Of a DNA stretch of 64,000 nucleotides, positions 1-43,729 are shown in pieces. The stretch is from Aulosira sp. ZfuVER01 (GTDB taxonomy: Bacteria > Cyanobacteriota > Cyanobacteriia > Cyanobacteriales > Nostocaceae), in assembly GCA_034530615.2 (NCBI GenBank), contig JAVRCV020000063.1:1-64000 (forward strand), written 5' to 3'. The position numbers and the translations under genes were made by a program. The stretch's first letter is position 1, and each line of letters opens with the position of its first letter. The notes beneath the pieces were generated by a model. That model had not been told where the DNA came from. It ran no database searches and was given only the letters and a program-made list of their open reading frames with translations.

Positions 1-113
1 TTTCCGATTTCCTTCCTGATTATACTCCTCCCGTAGTAACAAAAGAGGGTTATACTAAATCTCCAAAATCGGGCAACACATCTAGACTCTGAAACCTTGA
101 TTTTGCCAGACTT

Positions 114-3589: not shown

Positions 3590-4417
3590 CGCATATTTTA
3601 TGTGAAAGTCAAGAGTCAACAACATCACCATGTATGAAAATGGGTATAGGGCAATGGTGCGAAGAAGGGATGCCGAGAAATCCAAGGGAGTTCTGCTACG
3701 GGGCGATCGCTTGTGAGTTTGCTACTTTGCTTTTTAATCGATCACTTCATAGGTCGATTCAAGTTTCAGAACTCTAAAGTTGGACGTGTTTAGATAAATA
3801 CCTCTCTCTTAAGTATGATTCCTACATCTGACACGAACGGGCTTTTAATGTTTCTGCTATCGTTACTTACTCAATTGAAACAAAAGGAAGGTTGTTTTTC
3901 AAAAAGGTCATGCTATGGTAGAGATGTTTACATTAAGTCAAAAAACTCAAATTGCTAGTGACATGAATGCTGATGTTCACCGATGTTTGAATATTGCTTC
4001 AAACATTGTTCTTAGTTCAAATAATTATTTCGCCGCTTGCTATTGGGAAAGAACGGTCAAGCAAAAGCTGCTTCGCTCGCTACGTTGAGGCAATATTTGC
4101 TGAATCTTTTTTTCAGACACTAAAGTTTTTGCCCTATTTCTAGTCAAGGTTTCTACTGCAACCTATTTTTTGCAGTCATAGCTCGGCACAGCTATTTGCT
4201 GCCGATACGATTCATGTTTGCTGAGATTTTTAATTAGCCCAATGCGTCTAATTCAAATTGAGTTAGAAGTTAGAATCGGGCTAATTCGCAAATACGACAT
4301 AGCTATGCTTTTAGGCTGGTTGATAACCCTTCTACGAAAGGAGGCAACTATTTTGCTCAAGGCATTGCAGTGGAAATGTAGCCAATATTCCTCTTTTGAA
4401 AGAGGAGCCAACAAACG

Positions 4418-4483
4418 ATGCTGACAACTTATCAGGCAGCAATCGTAATTGTTCTAGCTATGGTTGGTTTGGTGGTGGCTTAA
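4418..4483 (+). CDS. Putative 21-aa hydrophobic small protein (MLTTYQAAIVIVLAMVGLVVA)
   Basis: GAGGAG RBS upstream of the ATG; single TM-like stretch; not in the ORF track. Confidence 0.3.
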   Translation: MLTTYQAAIVIVLAMVGLVVA

Positions 4484-4573
4484 CGCATCTGTCCAACGCT
4501 GGTACGGATTGCGCCTGTTTTTTGATTGGCTCAATTCGTTCAATTCTAGATTGAATTATGAGTTTTGATCGCA

Positions 4574-4774
4574 ATGAAATTCAAACATCACACACAAAGA
4601 CCCACAACGAGAAATTGTCTTTACTGTTCCCATCGATTACTACGTCATATTCGTGGTCAACGAATCTATTGGTTCTGTCGAAATTGCTGGGAAGAAATCT
4701 ATTTTCTAGAAGAAACACCTTTTAGAAAAGGCTTAAAGAATATCCCACAGTACCAATGTGAAAAAGCTTTTTGA
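4574..4774 (+). CDS. Small CxxC...CxxC zinc-ribbon-like hypothetical protein
   Basis: CLYCSHRLLRHIRGQRIYWFCRNCWEE resembles a small conserved cyanobacterial family. Confidence 0.6.
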   Translation: MKFKHHTQRPTTRNCLYCSHRLLRHIRGQRIYWFCRNCWEEIYFLEETPFRKGLKNIPQYQCEKAF

Positions 4775-4926
4775 GATTTGGACTAAATCCTATCCAAAGT
4801 TTGAACTCAAATTAAGTTTTTGCAGCGATAGATTATCTCAGATGTTTATGTTGAAAGGCATTACACCCATCTAAGCTTTCAGTTTGATCATCTTGTTCAA
4901 TTCAGATTAAATCAGGAGTTTCAATC

Positions 4927-5259
4927 ATGATGCTCTTAGTCCGACGCACAGAAAAGCCTGTGTGGTCACAGTTTTGTAATTATGGTGTTTACTTCACGCG
5001 ATGGTGGTCATCTTACTGGTTTAATATTTTTGCTATTGCAATTGTGTTAACCGCTACTTTGATCTACCTTCTAGCATTCGTTAACGCACCATTCTCTCAA
5101 ATCAGTAATGACGATTACCAACCGATTTTAAGTGCCTTGTTTTTGAACAATGAGATGAGTAACAGCACTACACCTCAGTTCTCTGGCTACCGATTAGCAC
5201 TCTTGTATGACTTTGGCAGATGGTTTGCTGTACAAGCAATTCGACTGTTGTCTAACTGA
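4927..5259 (+). CDS. Hypothetical membrane protein
   Basis: AGGAG RBS; one TM segment. Confidence 0.5.
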   Translation: MMLLVRRTEKPVWSQFCNYGVYFTRWWSSYWFNIFAIAIVLTATLIYLLAFVNAPFSQISNDDYQPILSALFLNNEMSNSTTPQFSGYRLALLYDFGRWFAVQAIRLLSN

Positions 5260-5333
5260 GTTTAGAACCGTGGTTTGAAGACCTTAAATGATGGTTTTTC
5301 TTTAGATATATTGTCGTAATTCGTAGCAAAGAA

Positions 5334-6503
5334 ATGACACAACAAGTTCTAATTTTGGGAGGAAGTGGAAGAATTGGGGGTCAAGTCGCCGCAGACTTGC
5401 TCTCCCATACTGCGGTAAATGTGACAATTGCAGGGCGCAATCCAAAAACCGGGCAGAAAGCCTGTCAGGTATTGGTCAATTCAATTGGAGAAACGTCTCC
5501 CCAACGCTGTCAGTTCGTCTCAATTCACTTAGATGATTTGAGAAGACTACAAGATGCGATCGCGCAATCAGATCTAGTAATTCACTGCGCGGGGCCGTTT
5601 CAACATCGAAATGCTAGTGTTTTGAAACTCTGCATTGATTCTGGTGTGAACTATATCGATGTCAGCGATTGTGTCTCTTTCACTTGTAAAGCGATCGCAC
5701 TCCAAGCAGAAGCCCAAGCCGCAGGAATCACCGCAACGATCAACACGGGCATTTTTCCCGGCATTTCTAATAGCATGGTGCGGCGAGATATCGAGCAACT
5801 CGATCGAGCCGACAAAGTGCATCTCAGCTATGTAGTTGGGGGATCTGGTGGGGCAGGTCTTACGGTGATGCGCTCGACCTTTTTGGGGTTACAGCGTCCG
5901 TTTGCAGCGTGGATTGATGGGAAACACCAACAAGTTCAACCTTATAGCGATCGCGAAGCGATCGAATTTCCACACTATGGCAAAGTCGGCGTTTATTGGT
6001 TTGATATGCCCGAAGCCTTGACGCTAGCGGATACGTTTCCAGTCAAAACCGTTGTCACTAAATTTGGCACTGTACCGCGTTTTTACAACTATCTGACTTG
6101 GAGCGTGGCGCGATGGTGGCATCCTAAACTACTGCAATCAAATAGCGCGATCGAGTTTTTGTCACAAGTCAGCTACGCAATGACGCAGATCAGCGATCGA
6201 TTTAGCGGCGTAGGTGTGGCTATTCGCTCCGAAGTGCTGGGAATGAAATACGGTCAGCTTGTCCGTTGCTGCTCAACACTGCATCATCCGAATACGGCCG
6301 AGGTTGCTGGTAGGGGAACCGGAGCAATCGCACAACTATTACTGTCTGGAGAACTCAGAAAACCTGGAGTGTGGACACCAGAACAAGTCCTCTCAACGCC
6401 AATGTTTGAAAAGGTAATGAGCGATCGAGATCTGGAAATTCATCAACAGTTGCTTCCTAATTCGATCGATCGTTCCTTTGAAACTTCTACTGCGAAGTGT
6501 TAA
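5334..6503 (+). CDS. Saccharopine dehydrogenase-like NAD(P)-binding oxidoreductase
   Basis: ILGGSGRIGG Rossmann motif, HCAGPF, GIFPGISN. Confidence 0.88.
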   Translation: MTQQVLILGGSGRIGGQVAADLLSHTAVNVTIAGRNPKTGQKACQVLVNSIGETSPQRCQFVSIHLDDLRRLQDAIAQSDLVIHCAGPFQHRNASVLKLCIDSGVNYIDVSDCVSFTCKAIALQAEAQAAGITATINTGIFPGISNSMVRRDIEQLDRADKVHLSYVVGGSGGAGLTVMRSTFLGLQRPFAAWIDGKHQQVQPYSDREAIEFPHYGKVGVYWFDMPEALTLADTFPVKTVVTKFGTVPRFYNYLTWSVARWWHPKLLQSNSAIEFLSQVSYAMTQISDRFSGVGVAIRSEVLGMKYGQLVRCCSTLHHPNTAEVAGRGTGAIAQLLLSGELRKPGVWTPEQVLSTPMFEKVMSDRDLEIHQQLLPNSIDRSFETSTAKC

Positions 6504-27521: not shown

Positions 27522-28058
27522 CTACACCTCAATACCTCGTACAAGTGCATCAATTGTTGCTCTAAGCGACTGCACGGTGTCGGGATCTATTAGTTCACCT
27601 TTACCATTCAGTTTCTTACTGACAAAGGGGACAGTCAGTGATGCTCCCTCGATAATGTTGGCAGCTAAGGCAGTCAGTGTCAGCACCAAAGAAGCATGGG
27701 CTTTGTCAGCACCAAATTCTGATGGAGATGCACTAATCGTAGCAACAGGCTTCCCCACCAACTCGCCCGACGAAACAATCCAGTCTAGTGCGTTCTTCAG
27801 CACACCAGGCATTCCATAAGCATACTCTGGTGTGCAGATGAGTACACCATCAGATGTTTGAAACTGCTCACGCAGATTTCTTACAGATATTGGCGGAGTA
27901 TCACCATCGAGTTCGGGATTAAAGTGCGGTAAGTCTGCTAATCCTTCATAGATTGTCAGATCAATGCCTTCAGCTACAAGTGTTGCAGCAGCCTTTAGCA
28001 GCGAAGTATTGGCAGAACCTGGTCTGAGACTTCCGGAGATAGCTAGAATTTTCATCAC
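27522..28058 (-). CDS. NADPH-dependent FMN reductase
   Basis: ISGSLRPGSAN, TPEYAYGMPGVLKNALDW. Confidence 0.93.
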   Translation of the reverse strand: MMKILAISGSLRPGSANTSLLKAAATLVAEGIDLTIYEGLADLPHFNPELDGDTPPISVRNLREQFQTSDGVLICTPEYAYGMPGVLKNALDWIVSSGELVGKPVATISASPSEFGADKAHASLVLTLTALAANIIEGASLTVPFVSKKLNGKGELIDPDTVQSLRATIDALVRGIEV

Positions 28059-28221
28059 ATATCTAACCTGGTTTCTTCAACTTTTCACGGTAAGCCTGCA
28101 CAATAGCAAAATACTCGTGGATTTTATCTTTTAATCTAGATTACATCAGTTTTCACTTTGGGAAAATTCTCAAGTACTATGTAAGGCTGCATAGTTACTG
28201 CAAGATTTTTGTAAGCAATTG

Positions 28222-28266
28222 AGGTGTTGTACTAAGCGTTAGCCAGAACCTGAGAATACTACACCT
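28222..28266. other. Putative site-specific recombination site (att-like) at the nifE breakpoint
   Basis: AGGTGTTGTA (28222-31) and TACTACACCT (28257-66) form a 9/10 inverted repeat whose centre, 28244, is where NifE homology begins. Confidence 0.7.
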
Positions 28267-29112
28267 TATGATATTAACTTAATCGGTGAGTACAACATCG
28301 CCGGCGAAATGTGGGGAGTGACACCGCTATTGGAAAAATTGGGCATCCGCGTCTTATCGAAAATTACAGGTGATGCTCGCTATCAAGAAATTACTTACGC
28401 TCACCGTGCCAAGTTGAATGTGATGATCTGCTCGCGCGCATTGCTCAATATGGCGAGAAAAATGGAGGAGCGTTATGGCATTCCTTACATTGAAGAGTCT
28501 TTTTACGGCATCGATGACATGAACCGCTGTCTGCGGAACATTGCTGCTAAGTTAGGAGATCCCGATCTGCAAGAGCGTACAGAAAAGCTAATTGCCGAAG
28601 AAACTGCTGCTTTAGATTTAGCTCTAGCTCCCTATCGTGCCCGCCTCAAAGGCAAGCGCGTTGTCTTGTATACTGGCGGTGTCAAGAGTTGGTCAATTAT
28701 CTCCGCAGCTAAAGACTTAGGCATAGAAGTTGTCGCCACCAGCACCAGAAAAAGTACAGAAGAAGACAAAGCCAAGATTAAGAAGTTAATCGGTAACGAT
28801 GGCATCATGCTCGAAAAAGGCAATGCCAAAGAACTACTGCAACTGGTTAAAGATACCAACGCCGATATGTTAATTGCTGGGGGTCGTAACCAATATACAG
28901 CCCTTAAAGCCAGAATTCCTTTCCTCGACATTAACCAAGAACGCCACCATCCCTACGCAGGTTATGTAGGCATGGTAGAAATGGCACGAGAACTGTATGA
29001 AGCTCTCTATAGCCCAATTTGGGAACAAATCCGCAAGCCTGCGCCTTGGGATGAGGAAACGGGGATGTTCAACGCCTTTGATGAAACCGGCTTAGTAGAA
29101 GAGGTTAGCTAA
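28244..29112 (+). CDS. nifE: Nitrogenase FeMo-cofactor scaffold NifE, 3' segment only (split gene)
   Basis: In-frame TAG at 28240-42, then (P)[24 protein letters not shown]...[10 protein letters not shown]...[14 protein letters not shown]-terminal part absent; no internal stops; directly upstream of nifN. Confidence 0.93.
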
Positions 29113-30431
29113 TGGCGATCGTTACTGCTCCCAACAAACCACTGACAGTTAATCCCCTCAAGCAAAGCCAAGCTTTGGGTGCATCTTTAGCCTTTTTGGG
29201 ATTGAAGGGAATGATTCCCTTGTTTCACGGTTCACAAGGTTGTACTGCTTTTGCCAAAGTCGTCTTAGTACGGCATTTCCGGGAAGCAATTCCCCTAGCA
29301 ACTACAGCCATGACGGAAGTCACTACCATTTTGGGTGGTGAAGAAAATGTGGAACAAGCAATTCTCACTTTGGTAGAGAAGTCCCAGCCAGAAATTATTG
29401 GTATATGTAGCACCGGGTTAACCGAAACTAGAGGTGATGATATAGAACGGTTTCTTAAGGAAATTCGCAAACGTCACCCAGAATTGGATCGCCTACCGAT
29501 TGTCTTTGCACCGACACCAGATTTTAAAGGTGCTTTGCAAGATGGCTTTGCGGTGGCTGTAGAAAGCATCGTTAAAGAAGTTCCCCGACTTTGTGCAACC
29601 AGAATTGAACAAGTGACCATCTTAGCTGGTTCATCTTTTACACCGGGGGATATACAAGAAATCAAGGAGATGGTAACTAGCTTTGGACTAGTTCCCATTG
29701 TTGTACCCGATTTGAGTGCTTCCTTAGATGGACACCTAGAAGATTCCTATAGTGCGATTACAGCCAGTGGGACAACTGTGGCTCAACTGCGGGAAGTTGG
29801 CGGTTCTGCCTTCACGATCGCACTTGGTGAAAGTATGCGGGGTGCAGCGCGGATTCTGCAAGAACGGTTTGGCATTCCCTACGAAGTTTTTGGACAACTC
29901 ACAGGATTAGAACCTGTAGACGAGTTTCTCCACGCCTTGGCAATTCTTAGCGGTAACAGCGTCCCCGAAAAATACCGCCGCCAGCGTCGCCAACTGCAAG
30001 ACGCAATGTTAGACACTCACTTTTATTTTGGTGCCAAACGAGTATCCTTAGCCTTAGAACCTGATTTGTTGTGGTCAGCAGTCCATTTCTTGCAATCAAT
30101 GGGAGCGCAAATTCATGCTGCGGTGACAACAACGCGATCGCCTTTACTCGAACAACTCCCCATCAAAAGTGTAACTATCGGTGATTTAGAAGACTTTGAA
30201 GAACTAGCAGCCGACTCAGACTTGCTAATTGGCAATTCTAACGTAAGTGCGATCGCAAAACGCCTTTCCATTCCTCTCTATCGTTTGGGACTGCCCATTT
30301 ACGATCGCTTAGGTAATGGTCAATTTACCAAAGTTGGCTACCGAGGCACAATGGAGCTTTTATTTGGCATGGGCAACCTCTTCTTAGAAGCAGAAGAAGA
30401 GAGAGTTAAACACTTTCACGGAGATTGGTAA
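29112..30431 (+). CDS. nifN: Nitrogenase FeMo-cofactor biosynthesis protein NifN
   Basis: VNPLKQSQALGA, HGSQGCTAFAKVVLVRHFRE. Confidence 0.97.
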   Translation: MAIVTAPNKPLTVNPLKQSQALGASLAFLGLKGMIPLFHGSQGCTAFAKVVLVRHFREAIPLATTAMTEVTTILGGEENVEQAILTLVEKSQPEIIGICSTGLTETRGDDIERFLKEIRKRHPELDRLPIVFAPTPDFKGALQDGFAVAVESIVKEVPRLCATRIEQVTILAGSSFTPGDIQEIKEMVTSFGLVPIVVPDLSASLDGHLEDSYSAITASGTTVAQLREVGGSAFTIALGESMRGAARILQERFGIPYEVFGQLTGLEPVDEFLHALAILSGNSVPEKYRRQRRQLQDAMLDTHFYFGAKRVSLALEPDLLWSAVHFLQSMGAQIHAAVTTTRSPLLEQLPIKSVTIGDLEDFEELAADSDLLIGNSNVSAIAKRLSIPLYRLGLPIYDRLGNGQFTKVGYRGTMELLFGMGNLFLEAEEERVKHFHGDW

Positions 30432-30434
30432 TCG

Positions 30435-30565
30435 GTATTGTCATTTGTCAATCGTCATTAGTCATTGGTTGTTGTGCATGAATTTTTTAGCGATTGCTAA
30501 TTACTAAACACAAATGACAAAGGACAAAAGACAAATGACCAAAAACAAATGACAAAGGACAAATA
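30435..30565. repeat. STRR-type heptamer repeats in inverted arrangement
   Basis: tgtcatttgtca...gtcattagtcatt then caaatgacaaaggacaaaagacaaatgac... Confidence 0.75.
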
Positions 30566-30568
30566 AAA

Positions 30569-30982
30569 ATGAAAATTGCCTTCACGACAAGTGACCGAGT
30601 TCATATTAATGCTCACTTCGGATGGGCAAGACAAATTGAGGTTTATGACGTCTCAGATGAGGGATATTCATTTGTTGAGACTTTGAACTTTGAGGGCGAC
30701 CTCAAAGAAGATGGTAACGAGGATAAAATCACACCCAAACTAGAAGCGCTAGAGGATTGCACAATTGTTTATGTTTTAGCAATTGGTGGTAGCGCTGCTG
30801 CTCGTTTAATTAAAAAAGGTGTTACCCCAATTAAAGCGCGATCGGAAGAAGAAGAAATCGCAGAAGTGCTAACTAAATTAGTGCAAACACTTAAAGGTAA
30901 TCCGCCACCTTGGTTACGTAAAGCTTTAAAGCAAAAAGACACATTATTTGTAGATGAACTCGAAAATGAAGCAACAGTATGA
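30569..30982 (+). CDS. nifX: Nitrogen fixation protein NifX
   Basis: HINAHFGWA, AIGGSAAA, PPPWLRKAL. Confidence 0.97.
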   Translation: MKIAFTTSDRVHINAHFGWARQIEVYDVSDEGYSFVETLNFEGDLKEDGNEDKITPKLEALEDCTIVYVLAIGGSAAARLIKKGVTPIKARSEEEEIAEVLTKLVQTLKGNPPPWLRKALKQKDTLFVDELENEATV

Positions 30983-31455
30983 GCATAGATAATAGTGTTA
31001 ACGGAACCACCAGCACCACAGTCTTAAACTCACCTTTTCTTAAAGCCATAGTCCAACAAATCCGGGGACAAGATACTTATGGAACTTACCGGAAGTGGTC
31101 TGATGACTTAATTCTCAAACCTTATGTTGTCACCAAACAAAAGAAACGCGAAATTTCTCTTGACGGTGAAGTAGATCCGTTGACTAAAGCACGGATTATG
31201 GCATTTTACCGGGCTGTAGCCGCTTGTATTGAACAGGAAACAGGTTTAATTTCCCAGGTTGTGGTTGATTTAAGCCATGAAGGATTTGGCTGGGTACTTG
31301 TCTTCTCTGGTCGTCTTTTGTTAGTTGCCAGAACTTTACGAGATGCTCACCGCTTTGGGTTTGATTCCCTAGAAAAAGTCGCAGAAGAGGGAGCCAAACT
31401 CATAGAAAAAGGCGTTGATTTAGCAAAACGCTTCCCCGAAGTTGGCAAGCTTTAA
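30979..31455 (+). CDS. NifX-associated protein (DUF269)
   Basis: LSHEGFG, LRDAHRFGF; synteny. Confidence 0.93.
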   Translation: MSIDNSVNGTTSTTVLNSPFLKAIVQQIRGQDTYGTYRKWSDDLILKPYVVTKQKKREISLDGEVDPLTKARIMAFYRAVAACIEQETGLISQVVVDLSHEGFGWVLVFSGRLLLVARTLRDAHRFGFDSLEKVAEEGAKLIEKGVDLAKRFPEVGKL

Positions 31456-31557
31456 GAGTCCTGAGTTCTGAGTCCTGAGTAAGAACTGCAAGATTAGGGA
31501 TTAATAATTGCAAAATTCTTAACTAAATACTCGGCACTCTTTAATAAGGAGAGGCTA

Positions 31558-31776
31558 ATGGTGCAAGCAGAAGATAAAAGTATTGAGGAGCTAAAAGGTA
31601 AAATCAGAAGACTCAATAGTAAAGCAGGTCAAATGAAAATGGATCTGCACGACTTAGCCGAAGGGCTACCAACAGACTTTGAAAAACTAATGGATGTTGC
31701 GGCTGATACTTATGAAATCTATCGCCAATTAGATGAACTTAAGAAACAGCTAAAAAAATTGGAGAAGGGTGAATGA
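31558..31776 (+). CDS. CCE_0567 / Rop-like nif-associated protein
   Basis: KAGQMKMDLHDLAEGLP. Confidence 0.9.
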   Translation: MVQAEDKSIEELKGKIRRLNSKAGQMKMDLHDLAEGLPTDFEKLMDVAADTYEIYRQLDELKKQLKKLEKGE

Positions 31777-32090
31777 GCCGGACTATTGATGAGTTCAAGC
31801 AGCTCGTAGATGCAGAGGAATTCTTTATTTTTTTTAACCTGCCCTACGACCAAAAATTTGTGAATGTAAATCGGTTACATATTTTGAAGAAATTCTCCCA
31901 ATATATGAGAGAAATTGATGAGAATTCTCCTGACTTAAACGCAGAAGAAAAACTCAATCAATATGCCATTGCTTTGCAAAAAGCCTATGAAGTATTTCTT
32001 GAATCAACACCTCAAGAACAAAAGCTATTCAAGGTGTTTAACGAGAAGCAAAAAAATGTAGTCAAGCTGACAGAAATCACTTCTGATTAG
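31773..32090 (+). CDS. nifW: Nitrogenase-stabilising protein NifW
   Basis: AEEFFIFFNLPYD..VNVNRLHILKKF. Confidence 0.96.
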   Translation: MSRTIDEFKQLVDAEEFFIFFNLPYDQKFVNVNRLHILKKFSQYMREIDENSPDLNAEEKLNQYAIALQKAYEVFLESTPQEQKLFKVFNEKQKNVVKLTEITSD

Positions 32091-32100
32091 GAGGTAAAAA

Positions 32101-32901
32101 GTGGTAAACCTGACGCCTACCGAATTAGAACGCTATAGTCGCCAAATGATGCTCCCTAACTTTGGCGAACTAGCTCAGAAGCGCCTGAAGTCAGCGACGG
32201 TTCTGGTTACAGGTGTGGGGGGATTAGGCGGTACGGCGGCGCTTTACCTAGCAGTAGCGGGCGTTGGGCGACTAATCTTAGTACGGGGTGGTGACTTGCG
32301 GCTAGATGATATGAATCGTCAAATCCTCATGACAGACGATTGGGTAGGTCAGCCAAGGGTATTCAAAGCTAAAGAAACTCTGGAAGCGATTAATCCTGAT
32401 GTCCAAGTGGAAGCAGTTCATGATTACATCACCCCGGAAAACGTAGACGCCCTGGTACAGTCCGCTGATATGGCTCTTGACTGCGCCCACAATTTTACCG
32501 AGCGCAATTTGTTGAATGCAGCTTGTGTGCGTTGGCGTAAGCCGATGGTGGAGGCAGCAATGGACGGGATGGAGGCTTACCTGACTACGATTATTCCTGG
32601 TGTAACTCCTTGTTTGTCCTGTCTGTTTCCAGAAAAGCCTGATTGGGATAGGCGTGGCTTTTCAGTTCTCGGCGCTGTTTCTGGGACACTAGCTTGTCTG
32701 ACAGCTTTAGAAGCCATCAAGCTGATCACTGGGTTTAGTCAACCGTTACTGTCACAACTGTTGACAATAGACCTCAGCCGGATGGAATTTGCTAAACGCC
32801 GTTCTCACCGCGATCGCTCTTGTCCAGTATGTGGTAACAGTGCGCCCTGGAGATACGCGCAATCAGATTCAATGGAACCCACTGGTAATTGCACAAAATA
32901 A
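32101..32901 (+). CDS. hesA: HesA (ThiF/MoeB family)
   Basis: ERYSRQ, GVGGLGG, CxxC pairs; position in nif cluster. Confidence 0.95.
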   Translation: MVNLTPTELERYSRQMMLPNFGELAQKRLKSATVLVTGVGGLGGTAALYLAVAGVGRLILVRGGDLRLDDMNRQILMTDDWVGQPRVFKAKETLEAINPDVQVEAVHDYITPENVDALVQSADMALDCAHNFTERNLLNAACVRWRKPMVEAAMDGMEAYLTTIIPGVTPCLSCLFPEKPDWDRRGFSVLGAVSGTLACLTALEAIKLITGFSQPLLSQLLTIDLSRMEFAKRRSHRDRSCPVCGNSAPWRYAQSDSMEPTGNCTK

Positions 32902-32998
32902 TCAGCTTATACCAATTCGTAATTCGTAATTACGAAAGTCAATAGCAAATACCCCACCTGTAAACAGAACACCTTATCGCTACAAATCAGGAGAATTG

Positions 32999-33370
32999 AT
33001 GACTGTAACTTTGACAGAAAAAGCCGAATTTCGTTTGCGGGCGTTCTTAGTCGCCTCTGCCCCCGATCCTAACGGTGCGACTAAAGGCGTCCGCATTTCT
33101 GTAAAAGACGGTGGTTGCAGTGGCTATGAATATGGAATCGATATTACTAGCAAGCCGCAACCAGACGATTTGGTAATTGAGCAAGGCAAGGTGTTACTTT
33201 ACGTTGATGCTAAAAGCGTACCTTTATTGAAAGGAGTTGTGATCGATTTTGTTGATGGGGTAATGGAAAGCGGCTTTAAGTTTACCAACCCTAATGCAAC
33301 TGATAATTGCGGTTGTGGCAAGTCTTTCAAAGCAGGTGATTGCACACCTGATGGTGTACCTTGCAGCTAA
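32999..33370 (+). CDS. hesB: HesB / IscA-type Fe-S assembly protein
   Basis: GGCSGYEY, CGCGKSF. Confidence 0.95.
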   Translation: MTVTLTEKAEFRLRAFLVASAPDPNGATKGVRISVKDGGCSGYEYGIDITSKPQPDDLVIEQGKVLLYVDAKSVPLLKGVVIDFVDGVMESGFKFTNPNATDNCGCGKSFKAGDCTPDGVPCS

Positions 33371-33558
33371 ACTAAAACACATCTAAATTGCATCATCACT
33401 TCATCTGTTCGTCTTTTGTCATTAGTTATTTGTGTTGACAAAATACAGAGGACAAATGACAAGTCGCGCTTCAGGTAGCTTGAAAACGAGTAGCACAGAG
33501 CGACTGACAAATTCTGGGAATTCAATCTAATTGTATAAAGTTTGAGGAGAATCGGAAA

Positions 33559-33858
33559 ATGGCTACCTACCAAGTTAGATTAATCAACAAAAAGGAAGAC
33601 CTCGACACCACAATTGAAGTGGATGAAGAGACTACCATCCTAGAAGCAGCAGGAGAAAATGGTATTGATTTGCCTTTCTCTTGCCACTCAGGGTCTTGCT
33701 CTAGTTGTGTTGGTAAAGTTGTTGAAGGTGAAGTAGATCAATCCGATCAAATCTTCTTGGATGATGAGCAAATGTCTAAGGGCTTTGCTTTACTTTGTGT
33801 TACTTACCCCCGTTCTAATTGCACAATTAAGACTCATCAAGAACCATATCTTGTCTAG
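33559..33858 (+). CDS. fdxH: Heterocyst [2Fe-2S] ferredoxin FdxH
   Basis: [25 protein letters not shown]. Confidence 0.96.
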
Positions 33859-41527: not shown

Positions 41528-43729
41528 TTAAGTTAGAGATTTTGTGAAAAGGCGACCATCCAAAACTAGGCTAAGTTGCCTGTTGGCAAGAACGCTAGTT
41601 CCTAGGATATAAGGAGCAACTGGGATTGCTTCCCCTAGAGGATGGATCGTAGAGGATTGTTTGCCGATGATGCAATCTACTTCTAAAGCACATAGTTTGT
41701 CTAAATAACGAAATACTAATAACGGCTTATCCTGCTTGAAAGCATTTAGTGTATCTGTACTGTAGGTGTTAACTGGGGTAGGAAAGTGGTTAGGAGAAAT
41801 CAGCACATCAGTCAGTAAGTGGATAGGGACGAGCATTTCCGTTGTTGGGAAGCCACTGGTGCCAGAAGACTGCAAAAATAACATGCGTCCCGCTTGAGTT
41901 TGGAGAATTTGTTCGGACTGGGATAAACAAATTTGCTCTACGGAATCGGCAACAAATGCATAGAGTCTGGAGTTAGCTTGACAGACGATAAGTTGAGCAA
42001 TTTTTTGCTCTAGGGGAATTTGCAGCGAGAAGGCTGTACCATGTCCAGCTTTAGACTTCAATACTATTCTTCCTTGAATAGCTGTTAATTGCTTGCAAAC
42101 TTCAGTTAATTCTGCTCCTAACTCTAAAGCAGCGCGATCGCACAAAACAGATGAAACTTCTGGTTCAAGTATTAGTTCAGTCGGTTGTAGAATATCCCCT
42201 GGTTTTGTCAGGGCGAATCCTTGGGCTAAAGCTTGTTGATAGATTTGAGATAAGTTAAGTCCTGCGCCATCATCACAGCCATCAATAATTAGTTGATTTC
42301 CCTGCTGGTAAACTTGAATTTCGATGATACCATTGCTATTTTTACCTAGCTGTTGGCGTGTTTGGCAAGACTCTATACTTTGTTCTAGTAAATAACAACT
42401 GATATGCAGTAGCAGGACACGGAGGCGATCGCTCAACGCCCGATCGACTTGGATATCACTAATTTGTAAATGTAGTCTAGCAGACTTATCTTGTAGAGCT
42501 TGTAACTGAGACCAAAGCCGATACAATGGTTCTAAGGCTACTTTTAAAGGAATAGTTGTAACTTTTTTAACTAAATCAGCAGAACGGTTAAGTAAATTTT
42601 CCTGCTGTACGATTTCTTGTTTGAGTTGGTAACGCTCGTTATTCAGGGAATGAACAGTTGATGCCACAACAGACGCTTGAGCTAAAACAGATTGCAAAGT
42701 ACTGTACAATTGCTGAGAGCGAGAAGCAGCTAAAGGGGAAAGGGTATCTGAAATTGCTGCTAAAAGTCCTGACCATTCCTGTAAATTATCCAGCAGGCGT
42801 TGTAATCGTTTAACTTGTCGAAGCAACTGCCCGATAGTATGTTGCTGTTGTTCTTCCTGACAAGCTTGCTGATTATAGTGAGTTAGTAATGTTGTAATCA
42901 GTGCATTTAGTTGTTCGAGATGCTGAATATTGATTGGTGTGGCGGCTGGAATACTGGTTGCAACAAGGGTGGGAATGTATTCTTGTAAAGAGAGTGTATG
43001 GCGATCACTCAAAGATTTAACTAGGGATGCTTCAGATGTTTCAGCAGGTAGGAAAAAATCTCCCAACCAAGCCTGAAACTCTTCTTCCCCATATTCCTCC
43101 AGGTTTGCTAGTTCTCCTATCTTAGCGGGAAGTCGCTCGGTATCTACGTGATAAAGGCTGCCAGACTGAGGGCTAGTTTCATCTATTAGCTCCTTGTCTT
43201 TAACCGTAACTTGCTCTGCTAGAGCCGCAGAAGATTCTACCTCGGACAAGGAATCGCCAAACTGGATAACTGATTGATGTTCCGGTGATCGCTCTAACGA
43301 TGTATCAAGGTTTGTTTCCTGGGAATCCCTAAACTCTGCTTGCAAACGAGCAACAATGGCAGACATCCGCTCCAGAATTTCTACTTCCTCAATTTTCGAG
43401 GCTGTTAAAAATCCCATCAACAGCATCTGTAGGCAATCTAATCCTTCCGACAATAGGGAGGCGATGGGAGCGTCAATAATTGCCCGATACTGATACAAAA
43501 GCTGAAAAATCTCTTCTAGTGCAGCCGCAACTATAGCAATCGTCTCTAGTTCGGCTGCTATAGCAATCGAATGCAGAGAGCCAGCAGCTTCCATGAGAGC
43601 CAAAGCTGTACCGGGGTTACTGTCTTTTGTATAGTTAGGCAACTCCTGCTCCAAGAACAGTAACAAATCGATCGCTTCTTCTAGAAAGCGATCGTCGTTC
43701 TGCGGTTGGGGGACAAAATCGGTACTCAT
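41528..43729 (-). CDS. Degenerate CheA-like protein (Hpt-like, HATPase-like and CheW domains)
   Basis: FLEEAIDLL Hpt start, DDGAGLN, GHGTAFSLQIP, C-terminal CheW; catalytic residues missing. Confidence 0.8.
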   Translation of the reverse strand: MSTDFVPQPQNDDRFLEEAIDLLLFLEQELPNYTKDSNPGTALALMEAAGSLHSIAIAAELETIAIVAAALEEIFQLLYQYRAIIDAPIASLLSEGLDCLQMLLMGFLTASKIEEVEILERMSAIVARLQAEFRDSQETNLDTSLERSPEHQSVIQFGDSLSEVESSAALAEQVTVKDKELIDETSPQSGSLYHVDTERLPAKIGELANLEEYGEEEFQAWLGDFFLPAETSEASLVKSLSDRHTLSLQEYIPTLVATSIPAATPINIQHLEQLNALITTLLTHYNQQACQEEQQQHTIGQLLRQVKRLQRLLDNLQEWSGLLAAISDTLSPLAASRSQQLYSTLQSVLAQASVVASTVHSLNNERYQLKQEIVQQENLLNRSADLVKKVTTIPLKVALEPLYRLWSQLQALQDKSARLHLQISDIQVDRALSDRLRVLLLHISCYLLEQSIESCQTRQQLGKNSNGIIEIQVYQQGNQLIIDGCDDGAGLNLSQIYQQALAQGFALTKPGDILQPTELILEPEVSSVLCDRAALELGAELTEVCKQLTAIQGRIVLKSKAGHGTAFSLQIPLEQKIAQLIVCQANSRLYAFVADSVEQICLSQSEQILQTQAGRMLFLQSSGTSGFPTTEMLVPIHLLTDVLISPNHFPTPVNTYSTDTLNAFKQDKPLLVFRYLDKLCALEVDCIIGKQSSTIHPLGEAIPVAPYILGTSVLANRQLSLVLDGRLFTKSLT

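Follow-up and report, generated by a model that had tools for sequence, protein, structure and literature searches.

A nifE gene held in two pieces at a serine-recombinase site pair in Aulosira sp. ZfuVER01, a candidate heterocyst-specific rearrangement

The only nifE gene of the cyanobacterium Aulosira sp. ZfuVER01 is held in two pieces, each ending in a hybrid recombination site, and we consider it highly probable that a large serine recombinase encoded beside the 5' piece (here called rec_E) recombines the two sites, attL with attR, at a central GA dinucleotide and so recreates the single split gene, by analogy with related systems in heterocysts. The 3' piece lies in a stretch of 64,000 nucleotides (the window, positions 1-64000 of contig C63 in a draft genome of 8.03 Mb and 83 contigs), and the 5' piece lies with rec_E on another contig, C56 (table 1). 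The finding belongs to a known and well-documented kind, that of nif genes split in vegetative cells and made whole by site-specific recombination in heterocysts, and the nifE site itself was catalogued in 2016; for annotation it means that the split nifE is no pseudogene and that the genome is to be scored nifE-positive.

In the window, a TAG (28240-28242) is followed by CCA GAA CCT GAG AAT ACT ACA CCT TAT GAT ATT AAC and an open frame to 29112. The 289-aa product (P0001) covers no more than the rear of the nitrogenase component-1 fold (positions 141-398 of 399 in Pfam PF00148) and the rear of NifE (positions 195-459 of 459 in the NCBIfam nifE model TIGR01283), and the gene is therefore a nifE without its first ~187 codons, much as a preliminary description of the sequence, made from the window alone, had it when it placed the start of nifE mid-protein. 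The same description called the following cluster from nifN to fdxH intact, and all of its genes are indeed whole in a Pfam scan (table 1); the complete FeMo-cofactor pathway of these downstream nif genes (29112-33858) depends on a restored nifE. Compared with Nostoc carneum NIES-2107, the 3' piece is 91% identical in DNA and 99% identical in protein, which points to purifying selection on the nifE pieces.

The missing 5' half had been predicted to lie elsewhere in the genome and is present there once. Its frame on C56 (P0003) starts MKITQGKINELL.., reaches ..VVGTAEP and then runs on through 11 further codons, the DNA of the nifE piece ending ..GGT ACA GCA GAA CC; P0003 spans positions 2-192 of TIGR01283 and 1-142 of the PF00148 profile. 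Against the TIGR01283 cut-off of 505 bits, the 5' piece scores 287.1 (positions 2-192) and the 3' piece 406.9 (195-459), so that each falls below the cut-off singly and both together tile the model with a summed score of 694. The pieces likewise fit an intact same-genus NifE, the N-half aligning to its residues 1-194 (97% identity) and residues 2-271 of the C-half to its residues 187-456 (98%). Two genome regions that jointly give a full-length NifE orthologue are one mark of an interruption element in the sense of Hilton, Meeks & Zehr 2016 (PMC4874684). A whole-genome Pfam search for PF00148 returned eight matches among 14 candidates: nifN and nifE 3' (C63), nifE 5' and nifK 3' (C56), nifD 5' and nifK 5' (C22) and two protochlorophyllide-reductase-like (ChlB/ChlN-like) genes on C15 and C4. 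In tblastn, either half has a single place in the genome. The genome thus has neither a duplicate nor an intact nifE at another place, and the window does not hold a dead copy of such a gene.

The two junctions share an identical core, CAGAACC, one letter longer than the CAGAAC that had been guessed, and any strand exchange between them would have to fall within it. AGAACC begins at nifE nucleotide 558 (C56:42580 minus 42023 plus 1), and the sequence places the break at nifE nucleotide 558-564, within the Glu codon that stands between Ala and Pro (..Ala-Glu-Pro..). Uninterrupted nifE genes in five genomes of the same genus, all five without rec_E, and in one of the same family read as the left flank of the Aulosira attL joined to the right flank of its attR with no indel (for example ATATGTAGTAGGTACAGCAGAACCTGAATATACTACACCT in L072). 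With a matching attL on C56, a shared core and a recombinase gene beside it, the earlier reading of this place as the right-hand att site of a nifE-interrupting element holds. An Rfam search gave nothing near either junction or in a conserved 190 bp after rec_E, all hits lying far below gathering scores, and a promoter scan found a -35/-10-like site in the P' arm upstream of rec_E at a regional count that is at chance (8 vs 8.4 expected). As a separate observation, all words sampled from window positions 27900-28600 occur in three root-metagenome runs of one study, which may be the source of this DNA, and small shares of them occur in 17 further runs, soil and rhizosphere among them.

The architecture of the sites can be read from consensus arms built from 23 attL sites (of 37 candidates, the others having been left out for misfit to the anchor pattern or for belonging to the other orientation type) and 12 attR sites, with those of the present genome included. 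The attP-type arms are two near-identical inverted copies (AAAGGTGTTGT.GTAA..GTT), and the nifE-derived arms hold the same ..GTGTTGT.. motif nearer the centre. When the outer 13 nt of the P/P' consensus are set against the B/B' arms, the best register is +5 bp (40/52), all other shifts from -3 to +10 giving at most 24/52. The motif AGGTGTTGT stands at positions 24-16 of the P arm and its counterpart at 19-11 of the B' arm, counted from the first base outside GA. In serine integrases, the motif bound by the zinc-ribbon domain is placed at half-site positions 16-24 in attP and 11-19 in attB by Rutherford et al. 2013 (PMC3783163), whose numbering base may differ from ours. The register shift between attP and attB that is described for phage serine integrases is thus present in the four half-sites. 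We infer that GA is the crossover dinucleotide, because the arms are symmetric about it and because GAACC is the sole stretch common to the attL/attR pairs of all compared genomes; register shift and central GA together make a concrete crossover model that goes slightly beyond the literature.

The preliminary description had drawn attention to a 9/10 inverted repeat centred at 28244. The repeat exists as described (AGGTGTTGTA at 28222-28231 with TACTACACCT at 28257-28266), but it is a hybrid of attP-type and attB-type arms and not one symmetric site: the true centre appears to be the GA at 28246-28247, and the centre of the repeat lies 2.5 bp off it because the outer motifs of a P-arm and a B-arm are paired. 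We rejected the repeat as evidence on its own: the 64-kb window has 88 repeats of comparable form (10-nt arms, at least 9/10 matching, spacer 15-35), a density of 1.4 per kb, and one such repeat is not beyond chance. It gains meaning only when it is compared with the junction on C56 and with the sites of other genomes.

A large serine recombinase gene had been expected at the end of the nifE 5' half, and rec_E is that gene. Its product carries Resolvase (PF00239, residues 3-135), Recombinase (PF07508, 176-261) and Zn_ribbon_recom (PF13408, 278-333) domains; residues 1-135 align with gamma-delta resolvase, including ..GYARVST.., and Tn3 resolvase also matches from the first residue. We take Ser10 to be the nucleophile. 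Outside the catalytic domain, similarity to solved integrases is weak (best full-length integrase match E = 2.6e-4). On the NCBIfam model NF041201 (XisF, 'fdxN element excision recombinase'; cut-off 375), rec_E scores 503.4 bits over positions 2-464 of 465, yet it lies at the nifE junction and not at an fdxN junction, away from the fdxN element on which XisF acts, and an annotation as 'XisF' is misleading as to its target. It is a distinct paralogue, since its identity to the other XisF-family genes of the genome is ~24% for the two in the nif region and 42% for a fragment on the small contig C57, and its place suggests a nifE-specific member of the XisF family. Lying 62 nt past the core, it falls well within the 3 kb from the interrupted gene inside which an xis-type recombinase is sought in the sense of Hilton et al.

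The presence of rec_E follows the state of nifE. Among 14 other genomes of the same genus, the nifE 5' frame is short (204-215 aa) in eight, all eight of which have rec_E, and nifE has a long frame (482-496 aa) in five, none of which has it. The remaining genome, G014, has rec_E at a contig start and gave no nifE 5' match. Counted by species, rec_E occurs in 9/14 of these relatives, always in nifE, and is absent from all 11 more distant genomes searched. A survey with one genome per species yielded 40 loci, 36 of them with rec_E orthologues (76-94% identity, one partial at a contig end) from Calothrix, Tolypothrix, Nostoc, Scytonema, Rivularia, Richelia, Mastigocoleus, Aetokthonos and other Nostocales. 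By these loci the nifE element is widespread, the 36 further Nostocales genomes extending the literature slightly. The nifE 5' half lies upstream of rec_E on the same strand in 28/36 (five of these with an extra 200-300 bp before the recombinase start). One locus is cut off at the core by the start of its contig, and one has neither nifE half. The remaining six have the reverse complement of the nifE 3' half upstream, with the recombinase at the far end of the element and pointing to nifE.

A tree of 35 rec_E proteins places the Aulosira copy in a group with the same-genus copies (support 100/99), and on this tree the far-end arrangement has arisen at least twice; flips of the whole unit at the quasi-palindromic site would fit such origins. 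In the genomes with rec_E at the far end (L035/L049, which are Calothrix sp. NIES-2100, and L027, L030, L036, L044 and L032), a P'-type arm is joined to a B' arm. The tree leaves out L042 (Plectonema radiosum NIES-515), whose frame is broken: at 4001-5402 the rec_E orthologue breaks after 232 aa, through a frameshift or a sequencing error.

The closest described case is that of Scytonema hofmanni PCC 7110. As tabulated by Hilton et al. 2016 (PMC4874684), nifE is among 22 interrupted orthologue groups, with two elements that belong to one variant; the PCC 7110 element has TGAACC at position 558 and a serine recombinase at its beginning, in + direction, 66 nt in, and is 9.5 kb long, and the element of Calothrix sp. 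PCC 6303 is marked 'odd assembly'. Gene and position 558 are the same as in Aulosira, TGAACC there standing against (C)AGAACC here; by that published table, the PCC 7110 element occupies 9.5 kb of one contig, whereas in Aulosira the halves are on separate contigs and the unrelated DNA joined to them amounts to at least 62 kb. Since AGAACC begins at nifE nucleotide 558, the present case is a further member of the described variant. The fdxN element of Nostoc/Anabaena PCC 7120 is similar in its recombinase family and in its principle, in which the interrupting DNA carries at its end the gene of a large serine recombinase that restores a nif-cluster gene; it differs in target gene and site, and XisF needs XisH and XisI, whereas here a different small open reading frame (ORF) accompanies rec_E and neither C56 nor C63 has xisHI. 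The large serine integrases of phages (Listeria A118/LI, phiC31, Bxb1, SPbeta SprA) share the domain set, the quasi-palindromic sites around a central dinucleotide, an outer motif 5 bp nearer the centre in attB-type than in attP-type arms and the expectation of a directionality factor for attL x attR. Unlike them, rec_E comes with no phage, the 'host' site lies inside a developmental gene, and the excisive or inversive reaction is the biologically relevant one.

We hypothesize that the vegetative-cell genome holds the single nifE in two pieces, the 5' piece joined to a P'-type arm with rec_E following 62 nt on, and the 3' piece preceded by the matching P-type arm. Dimers of rec_E bound to attL and attR would cut both sites at the central GA and, after rotation, rejoin the strands, giving an uninterrupted nifE with an attB-type site on the one hand and an attP-type site on the other. 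Were the sites direct on the chromosome, the intervening DNA would leave as a circle of at least 62 kb; were they inverted, the segment would flip. By analogy with the nifD, fdxN and hupL elements, the reaction would take place late in heterocyst differentiation, and NifEN would thereby be made only in the nitrogen-fixing cell; its heterocyst specificity is argued from this precedent.

The preliminary description took the DNA between the halves for an element removed by excision. The split, the sites and the recombinase stand, and the term may be too narrow, the site pair being inverted in 3/5 complete relatives, where nifE would therefore be restored by inversion and not by excision. In Nostoc carneum NIES-2107, the 3' half is inverted and stands about 10 kb off, beyond the nifK3'-nifE5' block, with nifK 5' inverted as well, Tolypothrix tenuis PCC 7101 has a like arrangement at about 10 kb, and in Calothrix sp. 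NIES-3974 the inverted half lies about 28 kb downstream. Next to its nifE 5' half, NIES-3974 encodes an orthologue of rec_E (76% identity), and this genome shows that the nifE site pair can work by inversion; PMC11249958 reports an inverted nifE 3' half for both NIES-3974 and PCC 6303. Against this, the halves are direct in Calothrix brevissima NIES-22 (6.2 kb) and Calothrix sp. NIES-2100 (about 42 kb, rec_E at the far end), and L017, a metagenome genome, has a direct element of 3.1 kb. In Aulosira itself the flanking DNA looks chromosomal and nothing in the assembly fixes the orientation, and we give somewhat less than an even chance to the possibility that its halves are inverted and that the same recombinase and sites restore nifE by turning a chromosomal segment.

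Distance and relative orientation of the halves are not fixed because both contigs end in dispersed repeats: the contig ends, including window 1-60, C56 and C22, share 50-58-bp sequences with many other contig ends, as typically happens where an assembly breaks off at a dispersed repeat or an insertion sequence. Nor can relatives supply a local map, since the flanks are not syntenic; in five complete relatives, scattered gene-sized matches were all that came from the 20 kb before attR and from the 14 kb beyond rec_E, and the last 2 kb before attR matches in 2/25 relatives, elsewhere in those genomes. In every comparison, homology to the Aulosira genome ends ~190 bp past the stop codon of rec_E and sets in again at window 28222/28223. 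The conserved unit therefore consists of the sites, rec_E and 190 bp, everything between them being variable, as Hilton et al. (PMC4874684) noted for element variants in general. The window to the left of attR holds genes for MFS, MarR, ABC transporters, GNATs, a desaturase, an FMN reductase and others, with no recombinase, phage or conjugation gene seen in 1-28243 by Pfam scan; C56 runs 33 kb past rec_E, and its first 14 kb hold, by Pfam, a ModA-like binding protein, an OprB porin, a cysteine-synthase-like gene and others. With direct sites the excised DNA would amount to at least 62 kb, well inside the 1.3 kb to about 1 Mb given for interruption elements (PMC4874684).

Several of these observations, with others, weigh against recombination of attL with attR by rec_E in heterocysts. 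A rejoined nifE or an attP-type junction is absent from all contigs of the assembly, each of the four arms occurring once, and no adjacency or orientation is derivable from comparing the 3' end of C56 with the 5' end of C63, both ending in dispersed repeats. The DNA beside the sites looks like ordinary accessory chromosome and is without the hallmarks of a mobile element; under a deletion topology, the DNA lost from heterocysts would measure at least 62 kb and would carry transporter genes and the cysteine-synthase-like gene. There is no xisH or xisI on C56 or C63, and the full-text literature (subscription-only papers lying outside its scope) gave only in-silico statements on nifE interruptions and no published experiment showing restoration of nifE.

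Three further explanations were weighed. That an ordinary mobile element (a prophage, an integrative and conjugative element or an island) uses nifE as attB, and excises for transfer and not for heterocyst development, would agree with the typical occurrence of large serine recombinases with attP/attB in phages and islands (PMC3783163) and with cargo that is wholly different between genomes; we hold it improbable, as no phage, conjugation or replication genes turned up in the stretches scanned, 28 kb of the window and the first 14 of the 33 kb that follow rec_E on C56, the conserved parts are the sites, rec_E and its small partner ORF only, the tree groups the Aulosira rec_E with same-genus copies, its occurrence in the 9/14 other species of the genus is always in nifE, and the same cluster has nifD and nifK interruptions of the developmental kind. 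That nifE was inactivated by an insertion or rearrangement, in a cluster that no longer fixes nitrogen, is suggested by the physical split and by the lack of a rejoined copy in the assembly. Such decay is very unlikely, however, given pieces that are free of stops and frameshifts and retain 97-98% protein identity to intact orthologues at ~9% DNA divergence, a split that is kept together with an intact rec_E in eight other species of the genus, and other nif genes that are all intact or split at known developmental sites. Least credible of all is a chimeric join at about 28243, for which only the draft state of the genome, with its 83 contigs, speaks; the 22 nt that precede the attR core have homologues at the corresponding place in 11 other genomes, for which reason the junction is not an assembly artefact and the misassembly at 28243 that the preliminary description had allowed for does not apply, and the complementary junction on C56 has the same core. 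Recombination by rec_E, whether excisive or inversive, is the reading we prefer.

A further component of the conserved unit is orfX, an unannotated 88-aa ORF convergent with rec_E, which overlaps the last ~140 nt of rec_E and starts in the conserved 190 bp. These 190 bp show 77-93% identity in 31/40 loci, and orfX was found by tblastn in 35/40, with a gap-free full-length form in 28 loci and in the Aulosira genome; its occurrence coincides with that of rec_E, nine same-genus genomes having both and the other 16 that were searched having no orfX. Over the 41 codons outside rec_E, variable sites number 23/14/36 at codon positions 1/2/3, as in a translated frame; the overlapping part is uninformative because third positions of both genes coincide. 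In NIES-3974, which differs from Aulosira in this respect, orfX is detached from rec_E by ~3.6 kb and has a shorter tail, its first 45 residues being kept. No family was found for it in Pfam, NCBIfam or PHROGs and no Atlas match, and a collection of 5.8 billion proteins yielded 27 close relatives only, all 'hypothetical'. An AlphaFold model, confident for residues 1-50 only, has three short helices (residues 4-49, predicted local distance difference test, pLDDT, 76-90) and a disordered tail, and a Foldseek comparison with the PDB gave nothing at E <= 0.001.

Recombination of attL with attR by serine integrases requires a directionality factor according to PMC3783163, and XisF needs XisH and XisI, as cited in PMC4874684 and PMC11249958; orfX is for these reasons a reasonable candidate for an accessory or directionality factor of rec_E, and the best candidate seen. 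If it were a true directionality factor, it could make attL x attR recombination possible, perhaps in a cell-type-specific manner, and a conserved small partner ORF in that role goes slightly beyond the literature. An alternative candidate is one of the ten xisH-xisI pairs of the genome. As local accessory genes, xisH and xisI were rejected: the genome has about ten pairs over ten contigs, none of them on C56 or C63. The recombinase of the nifK element is likewise followed, directly after its stop codon, by a convergent small ORF, which has 62 aa and is unrelated in sequence to orfX. About 15 related loci share the core ..ETLAELVARTVIEFEQRE.. of this second ORF, and no Pfam family was found for it. 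The two ORFs suggest a recurring module of a recombinase plus a convergent small ORF. More tentatively, and with the odds against it, orfX might found a new family of directionality or cell-type-specificity factors for XisF-type recombinases, a serine recombinase plus a convergent small helical ORF then being a general module of heterocyst gene-restoration elements.

Table 1. Positions of the nifE pieces, recombination sites and neighbouring genes; positions without a contig name refer to the window.
Feature	Position	Strand	Remarks
DNA between nifE halves or flank of an inverted segment	1-28243	.	accessory-type genes
attR, hybrid recombination site	28222-28266	+	sequence AGGTGTTGTACTAAGCGTTAGCCAGAACCTGAGAATACTACACCT; same architecture in 11 other genomes
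attR P-type arm	28222-28245	+	from arm consensus
attR proposed central dinucleotide GA	28246-28247	+	from symmetry
attR B'-type arm (nifE coding sequence)	28248-28266	+	from arm consensus
core CAGAACC	28244-28250 and C56:42579-42585	+	identical at both junctions
nifE 3' part	28243-29112	+	289 codons plus stop (29110-29112); residues 187-469 of intact NifE; product P0001
nifN	29112-30431	+	whole
nifX-like	30569-30982	+	whole
DUF269	30979-31455	+	whole
Rop-like ORF	31558-31776	+	whole
nifW	31773-32090	+	whole
ThiF/hesA-like	32101-32901	+	whole
hesB-like	32996-33370	+	whole
2Fe-2S ferredoxin (fdxH-like)	33559-33858	+	whole
nifE 5' part	C56:42023-42585, then short read-through tail	+	P0003, frame 42023-42616
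attL	C56:42562-42606	+	sequence ATATGTAGTAGGTACAGCAGAACCACAACACTTACAACCACACCT
rec_E (P0002)	C56, start 62 nt past core	+	468-aa large serine recombinase, XisF family
orfX (P0004)	C56:43909-44175 (= L059:5910-6176)	-	88 aa; convergent with rec_E; unannotated
second convergent small ORF (62 aa)	C56:39323-39511 (= L059:1324-1512)	+	just past stop of nifK-element recombinase
520-aa XisF-family recombinase	C56:39587-41158	-	abuts nifK 3'
nifK 3'	C56:41150-41400		shared core GTTCTCTT
nifK 5'	C22:75631-77040		shared core GTTCTCTT
nifD 5'	C22:54919-56334		split at GGATTACTCCG
nifD 3'	C22:~75370-75510		~19 kb between nifD pieces
477-aa ORF	C22:73836-75266	-	beside nifD 3' piece
third XisF-family recombinase	C22:48970-50532	-	directly upstream of nifS; 523 bits on NF041201
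fourth large serine recombinase	C22:42584-44126

Nine relatives (G006, G008, G010, G015-G018, G024 and G027) have a second nifE-like gene, with an N-half ~82% identical. Its open frame is 909-973 aa long, as though nifE and nifN of a second nif cluster were fused; Pfam and tblastn found no such copy in the present genome. The rest of the Aulosira nif cluster appears to be fragmented in the classical manner, with nifD and nifK split and an XisF-family gene beside nifS. The 11-mer at the nifD split is presumably the classical nifD-element repeat. The gene upstream of nifS sits where, by analogy, the fdxN element would be expected, and no fdxN 3' fragment was seen by eye in the 220 bp between it and nifS on C22. 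On C56, the short block of nifK3', a Mo-nitro_C ORF and nifE5' is flanked by two outward-facing recombinase genes.

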